Part shown: positions 12,001 through 21,000 of the stretch, in pieces
Numbering within the stretch: the stretch's first letter is position 1
How the letters are laid out: each line of letters begins with the position of its first letter
Source of the DNA: Candidatus Latescibacterota bacterium
GTDB lineage: Bacteria > Latescibacterota > CBDEFO01
DNA length: 64,000 nucleotides
Assembly: GCA_965248755.1 (NCBI GenBank)
Contig: OZ252149.1
Span: 2,528,001 to 2,592,000, forward strand
Direction: 5' to 3'
Program-made: the position numbers

Positions 12001-15000
12001 AGGGATTAAGCTCGAACTTGTCAACAAGAAAGTCAGAAGAAACTGTGCTGCCGATAGCAAGTGGCATTTAAGTTATTTGCGAAATTAAAGGGAATCTGTG
12101 TAGTCTATTCTAACACCGAAGGAGCAAAAAAGGAGCAACACAATGTTCAAGAACTTAAGTCCTGATGCGATAGGAATTCAATGCAGTTTAGTTGAGGCTG
12201 TCGAAATTGCCAAAACTGCAGGATTTGAAGGTATAGACATCTCAATAGAGGAGGTAGCAGATCTTGCTGATGAAAAGTCGATTGACTACGTATTAGAGGT
12301 ATTTAAAACAGCGGGGATCAGGATGGGGGGATGGATGCTGCCTGCAACCTGGCTCGGTGATGAGTCTTCCCACAACGAAGGACTGCAGAAGCTCCCTCGC
12401 TTGGCTCGCGTCGCTCAGTCTATAGGATGCTTGAGAATAATCGCCTGGGTTTGGCCATTGTCGGATGAAAGGCCTTATAAAGAGAACTTTGACTGGCAGG
12501 TTGCACGCTTCAGGCCTATTGCCGAAATCCTGAAAGAATACGACTGCCGTCTCAGTTTAGAATTCATCGGCCCTGCGACGTTGAGGAAGGACCACAAAAA
12601 AGACCACAAATATGAATTTATCTATACGATAGACGGCGCGCTCGAACTGTGTGTGGCCATCGGGACGGGAAATGTGGGTCTCCTTCTGGACTGCTACCAT
12701 TGGTACACATCCCATGGCACACTGGACGATCTGGAGAAGCTGACATCAGATCAGGTAGTTTACGTCCACATCAACGATGCGCCCTCTGGGATTAAGGTGG
12801 ACGAGCAGATGGACAGGGTCAGGTGTCTGCCCGGGGAGACAGGCGTAATAGACATTTCCAGCTTCATGAGGAGCCTGCGCAAGATGGGTTACGACGGCCC
12901 TGTGACGGTTGAACCGTTCAACGAGACAGTAACAAAGATGGACCCTCTGGATGCGGCAAGGGAGACGTACAAGGCCCTGTCTGGAGTCTGGGGATCGTAA
13001 ACAGCCTATGCAAACTGTCTGAGATATTCTATTGCCATGATGAAACCCTCTTCTCTGTCCAGTGCGCTGTCTTCGTGCTCTATGCTCAAAACGTTGTTCT
13101 AATCGTTTCGTGTGAGCGTAACAATCCCCGTATTACGACTTCCCGGAGTCGGGTAATAGGTAGCTCCACCAGCCTCCTGCAGGGCTTCTATTCCGAAAGA
13201 CGACGTTGACAGTCCTATTTCCTTTATAGTCTCCTTTCAAAACAAAAATAGCCCCATCAATGTTCAGCAGGGGCCACAAAAATTACCGTTTAATCTCGAC
13301 AATCGGTCAGACCGTCTCTTGCAATTTTTTCTTTTGCTGTATTTTCTCCAACTGTTCGGCTGACTGATGCAGCCTCAGTGTCAAGAAACATCCGAGCTTA
13401 AGGGCAATCTTCACTCCCAAGCGGGGATTGCGATCCATAAGACCTAAAAAATCAGGTCTGAAGAAGCCTATCATCTCGCAGTCCTCACAAGCCACAGCAG
13501 AGGCAGAGCGCGGCAGTTCATTCAAAAGGGAGAATTCACCTGTGAAGGCGCCCTCCTCCAGATGGGCAATCTTGAATGATCCTCCTGCATCTAACTCCTT
13601 GAGAATATCGATACTGCCTTTTCTGATGATGTACATCCCCAATCCGGGATTCCCCTCTCTGAATATCTTCTCCCCCTTTGAGAACTTCCGTTTGTGGACT
13701 ATCCTTTCTATATTCGTCAGTTCGCCTTTAGAGAGTCCTTCGAATATAGGAACTTCAGCAAGGACATCGCAAAGATCGTCCTGAGAATCCTTCTTATCCT
13801 TAAAGATATTTCCCCACAGGGCGTCAACGGACATTGTAGTCGTAGAATATAGTTTATGACGTTAAGGACAATTAATAGGCATTTTACGAGAGGTGCAAAG
13901 GACCTCTTTATCGTTTCTGCTTTTTGGTGCTTTTCTCTTCTAGCTTCGTTATCTTATCCCTGATCTCGGAGGCCTGCTCGTAGGCCTCCTCTTCCACCAG
14001 ACGCCTAAGTTGAGCGTTTAGTCGTTCCAACTCGATCTCATTTCCGACTTGGTTGCACTCATCTACCTCGCCGGATAGGGTAACGATATTATCAGGGTTT
14101 CCTTTTGTCACAGCTACAGGCCTTCCGAGCTTGCTTCTGTTGCGTCTCCTCATCTTTATGAACTTCGCGTAGCCGCTGAGAGTGGAGATAACCAGAGCGC
14201 CAGTCAATACGACCAGCCAGATGATCACCCATATAGGTATATCAGGCATGTCGTCTTCCTTTGCAGCAAAGATAGCACCTGAAGGATCAAAAAGGACTAT
14301 CCGGTCTAACAGAATATTTCCATCAGTGCTAATATACCGAAAGTGTATGTAATAGTCAAGAGGAAAATCCTGTTATGTTCATAGAATTATCTTGATCAGA
14401 TGTACATTCTTCATTATCTTATTTATGTCCGAATAATGTCAAGAGTACTAGCCGCACTTAACACGCACCTATCACAAGCGAAGTTGACATACAAAAAGGA
14501 GACAGATAATGGACATAACCGAAGTGAAGCAGACCCTCTGTGGACCTATGATACCTGTAATCTCGGTCTTAAAACCGGATCTGAGTCTGGATATCGAGGG
14601 AACCCAGTTCAACGTTCGCGACGTAGTAGAAAGGGGATTTATAAGGGGCAAAGGCGTCCTTTTAGCGGTCGGTGCCGGCGGAGACTTTCCTATGATGACC
14701 GTTCAGGAGAGAAAAGATGTAACAAGGGCTATAGTTGATGCCGCAGATGGGGTAGTTCCTGTCCTTGCAGGGGCGCAGGATACAGACCCTAAAGTCTGCA
14801 TAGAGATCGCCCAGTTTGCAGAGGAAGTGGGAGCTTACGGGATTCAGTTGTCCGCACCATACTACTACCAGCCTTCGGACGATGACGTTATAAAGCACGT
14901 TACGTCTATCCACGATGCGACAGAAAGAATTGCCATTATGATCTATAACACCTGGTGGCACGGATATAACATACCCCTGGACGTATTAGACAAGCTTTCC

Positions 15001-18000: not shown

Positions 18001-21000
18001 ATGCAGGAGGTCGCTCCGCCGGGCTTCAAGATCCACTACGATCTAAACTTTGATAACACGGTGGACCACGTCTTGCAGCTTGCTTATGAACTTGCAAAGT
18101 ACCCCATCGCTGGCGCAATCGAGGACCCTCTTCGCACCCACCACTCTGAGGGATACCGCCTCTTAAGGGAGAAGAGCCTCCTGCCGATCTACTTTCATCA
18201 AGTTCCAATAGGCGTCCGAGAAGCGATATTGGGATTGGTCGACGGCTTTATGTTAGGACACTCTCCTATCGGACCGGTCATCAGCAGGGCAGGTCTTTTT
18301 GAGGCTGCCAATGTCCCCTTTATGACACAGAACATAGGGGGTAACATTATGCGCGCAACAGTCGCTCACATGGGCGCGGCCTTCCCTATGGCGACGCTCC
18401 ACCATGTCAACCTCTGCCACCTCTGGTCAGAGGACGTAGTGACACCAACTTTTAAGGTCTCCGGCGGGGCAGTTCAAGTCCCTGAATCTCCCGGACTCGG
18501 TGTGACATTGGATCGGGAGGCGTTGGAACGTTGGGAGGCGGCAGAGCCAGATCCTTTGCCAAGAGCGCTGATCCGCATCCAGTACGCCTCCTTCCCCACG
18601 ATCTACGCAAGGCTCCCTGTCACAGATATGAGAGATCATGCAGGGACAGGTCCCAGCCATCTTCCCGGATATGGTCCTGGCTACAATAGACCAGTCGATT
18701 TGGAATACTGGGACGATGACGGTTCTCCGGAATTTGCCAAACTTTGGGAGCGCACCGCCTCTGGACCCGTAACTGAATAAATTAAGTAGACAGCAAACAG
18801 CGTACAGTAGGCAAGGAGAAGAGGATGCCCTCAAGGAGAAGAGGATGCCCTGCTACTACTATATTACTATAGAAGTGATTGAAACTTTTTAATGTTTGCA
18901 TAAGTATATGTAATCCAATAACGTAAATTGTTTAAAGGAGGGATTGCTAAAAGTCATCTTCAAGAATGGTTATACAGTTGAGGCTCGATTGGGAAGCCTG
19001 CGAAGCCTGAAAAAATAGCGTTCCAGATTCTTTCTTCAAGAGCATTTACAAGCTTGACTTACCGAAATCAAAACTTGCGAAAGTTACTTTAAGTTCACAA
19101 TTTGCAAATTGTTAAATTAATTTCAAAAAGTTTCAACGAGTTCTATGTAAGTAAGGAGTGCATTATTCCATGAAGATCACCGACATTGAAGTTCATACGA
19201 TCTGTCCACCCTTTTGTGAGTGGAACAGCGAAGCCCTGACGCGCTATCAGGGCCCTGACTTCCGGTGCCGTACTATCTATATATTGCACACCGACAACGG
19301 TCTGGAGGGTTTAGGGGAACAGAACGGCAAACCCTGGCCGCGGTCTGAAGAGTATATTGACCAGCTCCGGGGAAGTGATCCTTTTGACTGGTTGCATCAC
19401 CCGACATTGAATATCGGTCTGGCTCCAGCCATCTACGACTTGATCGGCAAGCACAACGGCGTCCCGGCATACAAGCTCTTTGGGCCTAAGGTGCGATCGT
19501 GGGTTCCTATGGGCTTTTGGACAGTCTCCCAGACTCCCTCCAAGATGGCTGAGGAGGTGGAGCACGCCGCCAGAGAGGGCTACACCTGGCTCAAGTACCA
19601 CACCAGCCACTTCCATAATGCAATCGAACAGACGAAGGCTATGCAGGAGGTCGCTCCGTCGGGCTTCAAGATCCACTACGATCTAAACTTTGATAACACG
19701 GTGGACCACGTCTTGCAGCTTGCTTATGAACTTGCACAGTATCCCATCGCTGGCGCAATCGAGGACCCTCTTCGCACCCACCACTCTGAGGGATACCGCC
19801 TCTTAAGGGAGAAGAGCCCCCTGCCGATCTACTTTCATCAAGTGCCAATAGGCGTCCGAGAAGCGATATTGGGATTGGTCGACGGCTATATGGTAGGACA
19901 CTCTCCTATCGGCCCGGTCATAAGTCAGGCAGGTCTCTTTGAGGCTGCCAATGTCCCCTTTATGACACAGAACACAGGGGGTAACATTATGCGCGCAATA
20001 TCCACTCACATAGGCGCGGCCTTCCCTATGGCGACGCTCCACCATGCCAACCTCTGCCACCTCTGGTCAGAGGACGTAGTGACACCAACTTTTAAGGTCT
20101 CCGGCGGGGCAGTTCAAGTCCCTGAATCTCCCGGACTCGGTGTGACATTGGATCGGGAGGCGTTGGAACGTTGGGAGGCGGCAGAGCCAGATCCTTTGCC
20201 AAGAGCGCTGATCCGCATCCAGTACGCCTCCTTCCCCACGATCTACGCAAGGCTCCCTGTCATAGGTATGACAGATCATTCCGGGACAGGTCCCAGCCAC
20301 CTTCCGGGATATGGTCCTGGCTACAATAGACCGGTCGATTTGGACTACTGGGACGATGACGGTTCTTCAGAGTTTGCCGAACTTTGGGAACGCACTGCCT
20401 CTGGACCCGCAGAAGCTAAGTAGACAGGAACTCCCCTTTCTTCCTACCCACTTGAATAGTGGATAGCATATAGGGATTGTGAGGATCAAACATAAATCAA
20501 TGGTTAAATGATTCGCGAGTTAGATGCGGTCGTTCTCACACATGACCTTGAAGATCATAGCCTGAAACAAGGTAATGTGGTGGCCGTAGTGCAATGTTAC
20601 AGTGATGGTGAGGGATTTGAGGTCGAGTTTGTGACTGCTGAAGGGAAAACGATTGGCTTATTGACGCTCAAACCGGATGATATTCGCCCAATGAAAAGTG
20701 GTGAGATGCTGCATGTGCGGGAATTCGCTCCGGTATAGTATCAGCTTAGCACGTGCAAGACACTACAATAATGTTACATCGTATAACACCTTCTACTCAG
20801 GTAGATAGCAAAGAGGGACGGGAGCCGGTGCCCTGTCTACTGCCTACTATCTTATCACGTTACTTCAACCACACAGTCGAAGATCTCACCTACATGCTCG
20901 TCGTCGAAGACGACGTCCGCTGTAAGGGCGTATGCCCGTTTCTTTGCACCGCTTGGAACGCGAATTCTGAACCCGGTCTTTAGGCTGTCCTTAGGAGGGA

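Follow-up and report, generated by a model that had tools for sequence, protein, structure and literature searches.

The genus to which this Candidatus Latescibacterota genome belongs appears to have lost the catabolic upper part of Embden-Meyerhof glycolysis and to run known bacterial bypasses together with a probably one-way tandem FBP aldolase/phosphatase (FBPA/P), a reading to which we assign a probability of roughly 60%. In this model the gene for phosphofructokinase (Pfk) was deleted and the two class I FBP aldolase genes fell into decay, and a class II enzyme is absent. Glucose would enter via glucokinase, and G6P would then pass through Zwf, Pgl and Gnd. The resulting pentose phosphates would be recycled by Rpe, RpiB, Tkt, Tal and a Tal-Pgi fusion. 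We propose that this closes a partly cyclic pentose phosphate pathway like that of Gluconobacter, in which F6P is turned back into G6P and GAP is drained into lower glycolysis. Hexonic and hexuronic acids that yield KDG would be phosphorylated by KdgK and then cleaved by a divergent Eda (semi-phosphorylative Entner-Doudoroff, ED), while xylonate and some other acids may be cleaved unphosphorylated by bacterial-type YagF and by DHDPS- and HpcH-family aldolases, and glycerate would be taken up by a MOFRL kinase. Hexoses would be built via PPDK and an 844-aa tandem FBP aldolase/phosphatase, which could have made the reversible aldolases dispensable. The fluxes and substrates named here are predicted from gene presence and absence, motifs, synteny and counts.

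We searched the genome and its sister genome for the enzymes of upper glycolysis. The Pfk profile PF00365 had no match in either genome (own best E 0.3), and tblastn with 15 Pfk proteins as queries against this genome reached a best E of only 0.088. Class II FBP aldolase was found in neither genome, and class I FBP aldolase was found only as broken pieces, at two loci in each. FGGY kinases numbered 0 here against 1-7 in 19 others, with 1 in the sister, and searches of this genome for ADP-Pfk, phosphoketolase and GlgP returned nothing. On all four enzyme groups (Pfk, both FBP aldolase classes and FGGY kinases) the genome-wide survey's note had reported the same losses. Decayed zwf, gnd and aldolase copies lie within the tkt/tal-pgi row. 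It is hardly credible that these absences are artefacts of assembly or sequencing. The genome is a repeat-rich metagenome assembly, but it consists of a single 4.54-Mb contig that is 98% complete, and the contig ends share 7,206 bp, with ~316 bp of overlap outside an internal repeat copy, which suggests a closed chromosome. The sister, which was assembled separately, is missing these genes as well, its copies of the two class I aldolase genes are disrupted by stops and frame breaks of their own, and the pfk-gap-pgk-tpi row of relatives is here dispersed over three distant loci. The loss of upper glycolysis is real and represents true gene decay.

Losing Pfk is in itself unremarkable: reliance on a pentose phosphate cycle or on a variant of ED is well established in bacteria without it. 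The earlier reading had allowed that glucokinase and the oxidative pentose phosphate pathway remain, and we found the full set: two glucokinases (Glk and a ROK glucokinase), Zwf, Pgl, Gnd, Tkt and ApgM above NCBIfam cut-offs, a Tal-Pgi fusion that passes PRK09533, TalC, and Rpe and RpiB with 44% and 37% identity to E. coli. PPDK is also present, and lower glycolysis is intact (Tpi, Gap, Pgk, Eno and Pyk, 39-63% identity). Glk, Zwf, Pgl, Gnd, Rpe, Rpi, Tkt, Tal and Pgi thus make up a complete gene set for a cyclic oxidative pentose phosphate pathway without Pfk, a simpler bypass that the earlier reading missed. Gluconobacter oxydans presumably has a Tal-Pgi fusion as well. A passage of PMC4588806 describes how this Pfk-less species recycles F6P through a partly cyclic pentose phosphate pathway. 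As described there, strain 621H resembles our genome in lacking Pfk, in having Zwf, Gnd, Tkt and transaldolase, and in that F6P can return only to G6P. Unlike our genome, in which Edd is missing, G. oxydans is described there as having Edd-Eda; it lacks PEP synthetase, whereas PPDK and the FBP aldolase/phosphatase equip this genome for full gluconeogenesis.

The tandem FBP aldolase/phosphatase, also missed by the earlier reading, is the only FBPase-family match in the genome. PF01950 matches both halves of the 844-aa protein. The seven top Foldseek matches of its structural model (pLDDT 80.6) were all FBPA/P, with TM 0.69-0.81 over the target and 21-24% identity to solved enzymes. The C-terminal half has metal-ligand, Y-x-G-K-D-D Schiff-base and phosphate-binding motifs, with residues that we take to serve as metal ligands and Schiff base; the metal ligands and Y-x-G-K-D-D were present in 119-120 of 120 homologues. 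The N-terminal half has lost GKDD and kept RxQSGxP, which the C-terminal half lacks, and the two halves appear complementary. Both FBP aldolase and phosphatase activities are predicted from these motifs and the model; with 236 of 520 bits, the protein falls short of the cut-off of NF041126, the profile for FBPA/P. Fold and C-terminal-half motifs resemble class V FBPA/P (ST0318, PDB 1umg/3r1m; Thermoproteus neutrophilus 3t2b-g), but the subunit there is a single domain of ~360-400 aa and here it is twice that length. The tandem enzyme offers a way to study, within one chain, how an ancient enzyme assembles an active site from two subunits. It is spread over Acidobacteriota, Poribacteria and other groups; PPDK adjoins its gene in 9 of 39 loci, and neither FBPase I nor FBA II occurs in any of 5 carrier genomes. 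The enzyme is probably one-way and sugar-building. An FBPA/P homologue can lose FBP activity, according to a passage of PMC8740755.

A cryptic glycolysis, in which a PfkB kinase makes FBP and the aldolase of the tandem enzyme runs toward cleavage, is very improbable. Four PfkB proteins could not be firmly assigned (477349, 445660, 623718/4534965 and 1063302), and of five other genomes that carry the tandem enzyme, three retain an intact Pfk and none has FBA II, as this idea would allow. However, none of these PfkB proteins reaches the thresholds for Pfk-2 or 1-Pfk (top scores 36-64 bits versus 216-432), the one at 477349 is closest to a Bacteroides fructokinase, and the two small Tal-family proteins resemble transaldolases more closely than F6P aldolase. 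The phosphatase activity of FBPA/P is established to drain FBP to F6P, and the tandem enzyme, which keeps all metal-ligand motifs of the phosphatase, should do the same.

The bypass model also includes a semi-phosphorylative branch, for which we found one aldolase candidate.

3331729-3332553 (genome positions): divergent KDPG aldolase (Eda) candidate, adjoining a KDG kinase gene

The earlier statement that Eda is missing and its match off-target does not hold: the candidate scores 47.7 bits on PF01081 (cut-off 27.8), keeps its catalytic motifs and lies beside a KDG kinase. It matched the T. maritima KDPG aldolase (1wa3) with E 1e-14, and alignment to E. coli Eda showed E54-x-T-x-R58, G85-T86, K195 and TGG all retained, presumably the Glu, Arg, Thr, Schiff-base Lys and phosphate loop with catalytic or binding roles. 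It reached 66 of 156 bits on TIGR01182, under the cut-off, has 18-25% identity to the other phylum Edas aligned, carries a 49-aa insertion and has one non-self homologue; its nearest atlas neighbours were all PF01081 proteins (0.87-0.88), which is a lead only. A KDPG aldolase missed by standard cut-offs calls for caution in calling absences. The PfkB-type KDG kinase is best matched by T. maritima KdgK (2afb; full length, E 3e-47), falls under the proteobacterial and archaeal KdgK cut-offs, and has 36-63% identity to kinases adjoining Eda-family genes in five relatives (G002, G006, G007, G056 and G057), where the adjacency is kept. With dN/dS of 0.18 and 0.20 against the sister, the pair is under purifying selection. 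KdgK and Eda together define the semi-phosphorylative ED branch in a passage of PMC2063504. The adjoining kinase and motif-bearing PF01081 aldolase fit that definition, but the aldolase here is very divergent, with its insertion, and no gluconate dehydratase is assignable; KDPG aldolase activity is predicted from the retained residues. Edd, gluconokinase, UxaC and UxuB had no match in the genome, so the KDG supply rests on candidate dehydratases of the UxaA/GarD family (35%), the UxuA family (under cut-off) and the enolase type. An archaeal ED pathway without a KDG kinase or KDPG step does not fit the adjacent KdgK and Eda-family genes.

We also analyzed genes of the window, which is the whole 64,000-nucleotide stretch.

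8195..10743, minus strand: tungstate-type ABC transporter, TupC/B/A-like (TupA 225 of 400 and TupB 198 of 320 bits, under cut-offs)
14509..15447, plus strand: DHDPS/NAL-family aldolase or dehydratase, 312 aa (PF00701, E 2e-26)
15498..16181, plus strand: RraA-like/HMG-CHA aldolase family protein, 227 aa (PF03737, E 1e-25; under LigK and other cut-offs)
16264..16725, plus strand: small lipoprotein-like protein (N-terminal hydrophobic stretch and Cys), unrelated to sugar acids (0 Pfam, 0 NCBIfam families)
16799..17491, plus strand: UPF0489-domain protein that breaks up the row (PF12640, E 4e-9)
17530..18780, plus strand: enolase-superfamily (MR/MLE) copy 1, divergent, 416 aa (PF13378, E 2e-24)
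19158..20423, plus strand: enolase-superfamily copy 2 (95.3% DNA identity to copy 1 over 1257 bp)
26530..27645, plus strand: enolase-superfamily acid-sugar dehydratase-like protein (AraD_Arch 224 of 650 bits, DgoD 217 of 311)

The locus at 14509-20423 holds two paralogs and two aldolase-family genes, whose substrates are not assignable, plus two unrelated genes, and is not a pathway operon. Its DHDPS-family protein passes no NCBIfam model (46 of 390 bits on that for archaeal KD(P)G aldolase), is best matched in the PDB by E. coli YagE (E 1e-21), and retains MIYN and SLKW, which we take to be the Tyr and Schiff-base Lys motifs. Enolase-superfamily copy 1 scored 52 of 750 bits on the archaeal gluconate dehydratase model. 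Copy 2 is, judged from the alignment, a recent tandem duplicate of copy 1, and synteny and cross-matches place both copies in the sister genome too. The gene at 16264..16725 falls in a low-GC bin (16001-18000, GC 0.415). Within the genome, archaeal arabinonate dehydratase is matched best by the protein at 26530..27645, though far under the cut-off, and the transporter fits the four AORs encoded elsewhere in the genome.

The survey's note had claimed that glycolysis was replaced by an amplified, archaeal-style non-phosphorylative ED pathway. The loss of upper glycolysis stands; the replacement does not, with families not raised, KdgK-Eda present and archaeal cut-offs unmet. Its counts were about right (GFO 35 at E<=1e-8, MR_MLE 13, DHDPS 14, HpcH 14, AOR 4, MOFRL 1), but the families are not amplified: of 20 genomes counted, this one and the sister (31) have the fewest GFO genes, 10 of 14 Pfk-bearing genomes have more MR_MLE genes, and the MOFRL kinase occurs in 5 of 5 genomes tested, including 3 of 3 Pfk-bearing relatives. 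The GFO dehydrogenase and enolase-type dehydratase families characterize the phylum as a whole, and most Pfk-bearing relatives have more of these genes than this genome; as background, their counts are uninformative on glycolysis loss, which corrects pathway calls for the phylum. The archaeal cut-offs for gluconate and arabinonate dehydratases, KD(P)G aldolase and glycerate kinase are reached by no family member. All 13 MR_MLE proteins were scanned with NF040790 (gluconate dehydratase; best 244.5 of 750 bits) and all 14 DHDPS proteins with NF040954 (DHDPS-type KD(P)G aldolase; best 146 of 390). Two MR_MLE proteins pass bacterial DgoD and one is MenC; one DHDPS protein is DapA. The MOFRL glycerate 2-kinase, assigned at family level only (PF05161, E 1e-43), reached 233 of 670 and 226 of 550 bits on archaeal models, and a Mo-hydroxylase 418 of 790 on archaeal glyceraldehyde dehydrogenase. 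Compared with the non-phosphorylative or branched ED of Sulfolobus, Thermoproteus and Thermoplasma, as outlined in PMC2063504 passages, this genome shares the families of enolase-type dehydratases, DHDPS-type aldolases, AORs, a MOFRL kinase and FBPA/P; it differs in unmet cut-offs, the lack of a pathway cluster, a bacterial-type Eda and an oxidative pentose phosphate pathway.

Some non-phosphorylative cleavage of a bacterial kind is likely, as side routes. In a narrowed form of the survey's reading, which is rather unlikely, most sugar would be broken down by non-phosphorylative oxidation through a dehydrogenase, lactonase, dehydratase, aldolase, tungsten AOR and glycerate 2-kinase, an archaeal-like branched ED made from bacterial paralogs with KdgK-Eda as a side branch. 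The FGGY deletion points that way, as do two DgoD orthologs whose partners DgoK and DgoA were not found in the genome, and an HpcH gene directly after the MOFRL gene. In E. coli, YagF and YagE form the xylonate (Dahms) route; the YagF ortholog here (62% identity, over the TIGR03432 cut-off) agrees with it, but the best YagE match has only 32% identity and is 740 kb distant. A GFO-lactonase-DHDPS row at 3423843-3426742 (genome positions) would also suit such a route, but its DHDPS protein is closest to N-acetylneuraminate lyases. Four AFOR-family proteins occur here and 0 in four relatives; against this, the best one is closest to general AORs (9mqx, 8c0z and 1aor) and is flanked by Fe-S and FAD subunit genes far from any sugar-acid gene, and other Pfk-less genomes have no AOR. 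HpcH aldolases alone, among the families counted, lean toward Pfk-less genomes (median 15 in 13 Pfk-less versus 9 in 45 Pfk-bearing genomes). Both samples show this excess in genomes without Pfk, but the ranges overlap, with at least 14 HpcH genes in 8 of 31 Pfk-bearing genomes of the second sample. The unraised GFO and MR_MLE families, the widespread MOFRL kinase, the archaeal ED models, none of which was passed, and the intact pentose phosphate pathway also weigh against this route. The DgoD orthologs without partners and the raised HpcH counts suggest that non-phosphorylative flux may exceed the share given to it in our bypass model.

It is unlikely that the organism has given up sugars as its main food and grows on organic acids, amino acids, aldehydes or C1 compounds with one-way gluconeogenesis, its sugar-acid families a shrinking inheritance for minor substrates. 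The lowest GFO counts, the FGGY deletion, the decayed copies in the tkt/tal-pgi row, PPDK with FBPA/P, HPS and PHI over cut-offs, the AORs with the tungstate transporter, and ~45 near-identical copies of a 1.6-kb repeat are consistent with it. Two glucokinases, intact zwf-gnd, the purifying selection on KdgK-Eda, the 14 HpcH and 14 DHDPS genes and recent enolase-family tandem duplications (four genes in a row at 1480081-1485423, genome positions, and the two in the window) argue for continued sugar use. This lifestyle is compatible with the bypass model rather than exclusive of it.

The loss of Pfk is wider than the genus. Among 125 near-complete Latescibacterota genomes (at least 90% complete), 13 were without Pfk, at four places on the RpoB tree; the survey had seen the loss in this genus alone, and 11 of 123 other genomes of that completeness share it. 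A tentative and rather doubtful extension is that Pfk was lost several times in one clade, always in lineages rich in HpcH (metal-dependent pyruvate aldolases), with this genus as an end point that is also without reversible FBP aldolases, class I FBPase and FGGY kinases. It would have gained a single-chain, half-of-sites FBPA/P and tungsten AORs, converging with non-archaeal parts on an archaeal layout of branched ED breakdown and one-way FBPA/P synthesis. Repeated losses in close relatives provide natural replicates for studying how a sugar-acid specialist can dispense with glycolysis, and HpcH aldolases offer a correlate to test. For sponge Latescibacterota MAGs, which the survey's note took to have complete glycolysis, the cited passage of PMC12993501 reports it complete in three of ten, not in all.

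The host genome is a single contig of 4,540,735 bases with 0 N, 47 tRNAs and 98% completeness. The two ends of this contig match over 7,206 bases, and because about 316 of these fall outside the internal copy of the repeat, the chromosome appears closed. Window positions equal contig positions minus 2,528,000; contig numbering is used for host loci outside the window. We found no match to Pfk (PF00365) in the host or in its sister genome from the same genus (best E 0.3), and a search of the host with 14 Pfk proteins from relatives and E. coli PfkA as queries found no remnant (best E 0.088). 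ADP-Pfk, phosphoketolase and class II FBP aldolase were found in neither genome. Both genomes have two class I aldolase genes, which are broken pieces with several stops or frame breaks; in the host these lie in a tkt/tal-pgi row near 183,000 and near 1,709,000. The breaks were checked against the sister assembly only. Across 20 genomes, FGGY kinases numbered zero in the host, one each in the sister and in comparison genome G003, and 3-7 in the other 17. The sister's FGGY gene sits next to enolase, in a segment of about 4 kb missing from the host. These results bear out what the genome-wide survey's note had claimed for Pfk and class II FBP aldolase (missing) and for FGGY kinases (none in the host, one in the sister). 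The loss of upper-glycolysis genes in the host is real.

In three relatives examined, pfk stands first in a row with pgk and tpi, joined by gap in two of them; gap, pgk and tpi of the host are scattered, at 2.20, 1.19 and 1.07 Mb. A host row at contig 175251-183450 (L027) holds tkt, tal-pgi, HAD, pgl and glycogen-debranching genes, in which tkt, tal-pgi and pgl are whole and the copies of class I aldolase, gnd and zwf are broken. An intact gnd-zwf pair is located at contig 4433503-4436509, near glk. The host also contains about 45 copies, 99.6-100% identical, of a 1.63-kb repeat (for example, contig 6052-7678); this is probably an insertion sequence that multiplied recently. Genes for a PfkB kinase and an SDR protein lie on a 7.3-kb segment that occurs in two copies of 99.9% identity (contig 618631-625991 and 1-7678 / 4533530-4540735), one of which spans the contig ends.

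Loss of Pfk, attributed by the survey to this genus alone, proved more widespread: among the 125 genomes of the phylum with a completeness of 90% or more, 13 had no Pfk match. Eight of the 13 are assembled in 1-8 contigs and come from five genera (G000, the host, with its sister G001; G056 and G064; G059 and G095; G054; G100). The remaining five are fragmented (150-460 contigs), and their lack of Pfk may be due to assembly gaps, since four of them have Pfk-bearing congeners. In an RpoB tree built by a quick method from 25 genomes (G004 is absent because RpoB was not matched there, and for G059 a second, partial match was omitted), six Pfk-less rows require four changes, forced by well-supported branches. 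One of the four depends on a fragmented genome, so three rest on near-closed genomes. Four other Pfk-less genomes tested all retain class I FBPase and a class I aldolase-family gene, and their Eda is canonical in three and split in one. What sets this genus apart is that it has additionally lost its reversible aldolases and FBPase I. In Pfk-less G059, the canonical eda appears to be split: its two parts are separated by about 2.7 kb, and one of them contains a stop (L103, G059:C1 4029374-4032647).

Absence of class II FBP aldolase was rejected as a marker of glycolysis loss because it is missing in 28 of 61 genomes; in one genus it is absent from 14 of 14 genomes despite the presence of Pfk and class I aldolase. 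Pfk loss is common among bacteria, and 5 of 14 control genomes had no Pfk. Our literature searches found no published report of Pfk loss in Latescibacterota, which is weak evidence of absence. The survey had also cited complete glycolysis in sponge MAGs; PMC12993501 describes it for three of ten MAGs, not for all ten.

We then compared the enzyme families described as amplified, counting GFO, MR_MLE (enolase-superfamily) and HpcH proteins in the same 20 genomes at the same thresholds. The host and its sister have the two lowest GFO counts (35 and 31), with 43-99 in all 14 Pfk-bearing genomes. The 13 MR_MLE proteins of the host are exceeded in 10 of 14 Pfk-bearing genomes (maximum 58). Counts did not differ by Pfk status for GFO (p 0.41) or MR_MLE (p 0.54). 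The host has 14 DHDPS proteins, compared with 9-13 in four other genomes, and the MOFRL glycerate 2-kinase is single-copy in 5 of 5 genomes, three of them with Pfk. On these counts the families are not amplified, but two groups of enzymes, AOR and HpcH, are exceptional. Tungsten aldehyde oxidoreductases (AOR) number four in the host and zero in four relatives, two of which are also Pfk-less. A tandem pair of AFOR-family genes lies at contig 1746539-1750258 (L143); the first is far more divergent (E 3e-40 vs 1e-127), possibly an inactive or specialised partner.

HpcH proteins numbered 11-18 in the six Pfk-less and 2-9 in the 14 Pfk-bearing genomes of this set. A clean split by Pfk status was rejected because the ranges overlap in 38 further genomes, with a median of 17 in seven Pfk-less genomes (range 10-25) and 10 in 31 with Pfk (range 3-22), eight of which have at least 14. 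HpcH was chosen after four families had been inspected, the 31 controls were hand-picked from 112, and related genomes are not independent; for these reasons, together with the failed split, the HpcH excess in Pfk-less genomes is a tendency only.

To assess the proposed archaeal route, we scanned the host's full sets of 13 MR_MLE and 14 DHDPS proteins with archaeal and bacterial models. The best MR_MLE scores were 244.5 of 750 bits for archaeal gluconate dehydratase and 224 of 650 for arabinonate dehydratase, and the best DHDPS score for archaeal KD(P)G aldolase was 146 of 390. The glycerate kinase of the host also fell below the archaeal models (233 of 670 and 226 of 550). The models that were passed are bacterial: two DgoD, MenC, DapA and YagF, the last 62% identical to E. 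coli YagF. One of the four AOR proteins was searched; its nearest matches were general aldehyde oxidoreductases, and its gene is flanked by genes for an Fe-S and an FAD subunit. Non-phosphorylative cleavage of some acids is likely, given the YagF ortholog, the DgoD proteins for which no DgoK/DgoA partners were found in the host, and an HpcH gene directly after the MOFRL gene. The survey's interpretation is supported in part: such cleavage would be of bacterial type and run as side routes, but an archaeal-type replacement is not supported, and no archaeal cut-off was reached. By the features tested, the organism falls outside the archaeal non-phosphorylative Entner-Doudoroff (ED) type. A PfkB protein at 4342648, considered as the sugar kinase for YagF, was rejected, as it is HldE domain I.

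The window region to which the survey had pinned this route, 14509-20423, contains six plus-strand genes, encoding a DHDPS-family protein, an RraA/HMG-aldolase-family protein, a small lipoprotein-like protein, a UPF0489 protein and two enolase-superfamily paralogs (95.3% identity across 1257 bp). The paralogs scored 52 and 55 of 750 bits against the archaeal gluconate dehydratase model, and none of the six genes came near any cut-off of the curated family models. The row, which is conserved in the sister, is a sample of the families and no pathway operon.
Also in the window are:
8195-10743, a tungstate-type ABC transporter near this row, with scores under the TupA/TupB cut-offs
22965-23987, DUF4269 fused with a HIT domain
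Elsewhere in the host, five consecutive enolase-superfamily genes (contig 1479029-1485423, L043), four of about 390 aa with similar family scores, represent a local tandem expansion. A microcompartment locus at contig 1037594-1044702 (L156), in this genome without FGGY kinase, has two BMC and three EutN shell genes, an acylating aldehyde dehydrogenase and a class II aldolase; its aldehyde may be lactaldehyde or glycolaldehyde produced by HpcH/Dahms cleavage.

Eda had been reported missing, but a protein at contig 3331729-3332553 scores 47.7 bits on PF01081 (cut-off 27.8), and among natural proteins in the PDB it matches the T. maritima KDPG aldolase best (E 1e-14). It retains E54-x-T-x-R58, G85-T86, K195-x-x-P and T-G-G, motifs with catalytic roles in this family, in the columns where E. 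coli Eda and ten homologues from the phylum have them. The neighbouring gene, in convergent orientation, encodes a kinase that matches the T. maritima KDG kinase best (full length, E 3e-47), and this kinase family also adjoins an Eda-family gene in G002, G006, G007, G056 and G057. Against the sister, dN/dS of both genes is near 0.2, on few changes. The protein has a 49-aa insertion, shares 18-25% identity with other aligned Edas, and falls below the TIGR01182 cut-off; it had one non-self homologue, and a locus search matched the sister alone. A single-sequence AlphaFold model (pLDDT 35.6) was not used. Taken together, motifs and neighbourhood indicate that a divergent Eda is present. PMC2063504 describes KDG kinase as the enzyme on which the semi-phosphorylative branch hinges. 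Against this reading, an Eda-family enzyme can have other uses, as a 2026 preprint on Synechocystis reports. The survey's observation is therefore confirmed for the upper-glycolysis gene loss, but not for uniqueness, amplification or the absence of Eda.

No FBPase I or GlpX was found in the host. The sole FBPase-family gene found encodes an 844-aa protein (contig 4319530-4322064; L061:5530-8064, minus strand) that matches PF01950 with two copies of the FBP aldolase/phosphatase (FBPA/P) domain. Among 61 genomes, this tandem form occurs in the host and sister only; G003 has a normal single-domain protein and G048 a fragment. A search gave 241 matches, of which the best 120 have 61-97% identity and are nearly all 820-860 aa, and 40 loci were from Acidobacteriota, Poribacteria, Nitrospinota, Gemmataceae, Chloroflexota classes and others. 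Tandem proteins of this kind, about 840 aa long, form a family conserved across several phyla. The C-terminal half of the host protein retains KxD, GH, GDD, GQD, DK, YxGKDDP and GRGSH; GKDD is lost from the N-terminal half, which has kept RxQSGxP, a motif that is absent after KDDP in 120 of 120 homologues. In canonical FBPA/P, the QS pair is contributed to the site of the adjacent subunit. Because the halves are complementary in motifs and the QS pair is donated between subunits, we read the protein as a dimer fused into one chain that has a single working site. Its predicted model (pLDDT 80.6, pTM 0.79) matches FBPA/P structures over half of its length.

PPDK follows the tandem gene in 9 of 39 loci. 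Five carrier genomes had neither FBPase I (0/5) nor class II FBP aldolase (0/5), and a class I/DeoC-family match was present in four; Pfk was intact in three, broken in one and not found in one. The only Pfk of carrier G147 is a pseudogene with five stops (G147:C1 1157388-1158035), a parallel loss in a different phylum. No published report of the tandem protein was found, which is weak evidence of absence, as the enzyme-name phrase matched poorly. The repeated Pfk losses, the HpcH tendency and the tandem protein raise the finding above routine.

Glk, ROK glucokinase, Zwf, Pgl, Gnd, Tkt, a Tal-Pgi fusion and TalC of the host all exceed curated cut-offs, and Rpe and RpiB have clear orthologs. 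The lower pathway is complete (Tpi, Gap, Pgk, ApgM, Eno, Pyk and PPDK); a missing phosphoglycerate mutase, considered because there is no GpmM/GpmA ortholog, was rejected when ApgM was found. The IlvD/Edd family has two genes only, YagF and a probable IlvD, and therefore no Edd; with no Pfk either, glucose 6-phosphate could therefore be broken down only via the pentose phosphate cycle. PMC4588806 describes this cycle in Pfk-less G. oxydans. Hexoses would thus be handled as in Gluconobacter, by a cyclic pentose phosphate pathway without Pfk, KDG as in semi-phosphorylative ED users, and bacterial non-phosphorylative routes would operate on the side. No PfkB protein of the host reaches the Pfk-2 or 1-Pfk models, and an F6P aldolase bypass was rejected, as the small Tal-family proteins are transaldolase-like. 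At contig 477349-479560 (L031:5349-7557, plus strand), a fructokinase-like PfkB gene is followed by hexulose-6-phosphate synthase and isomerase genes, both over cut-offs, a predicted ribulose monophosphate module that would serve to handle formaldehyde or to make pentoses.
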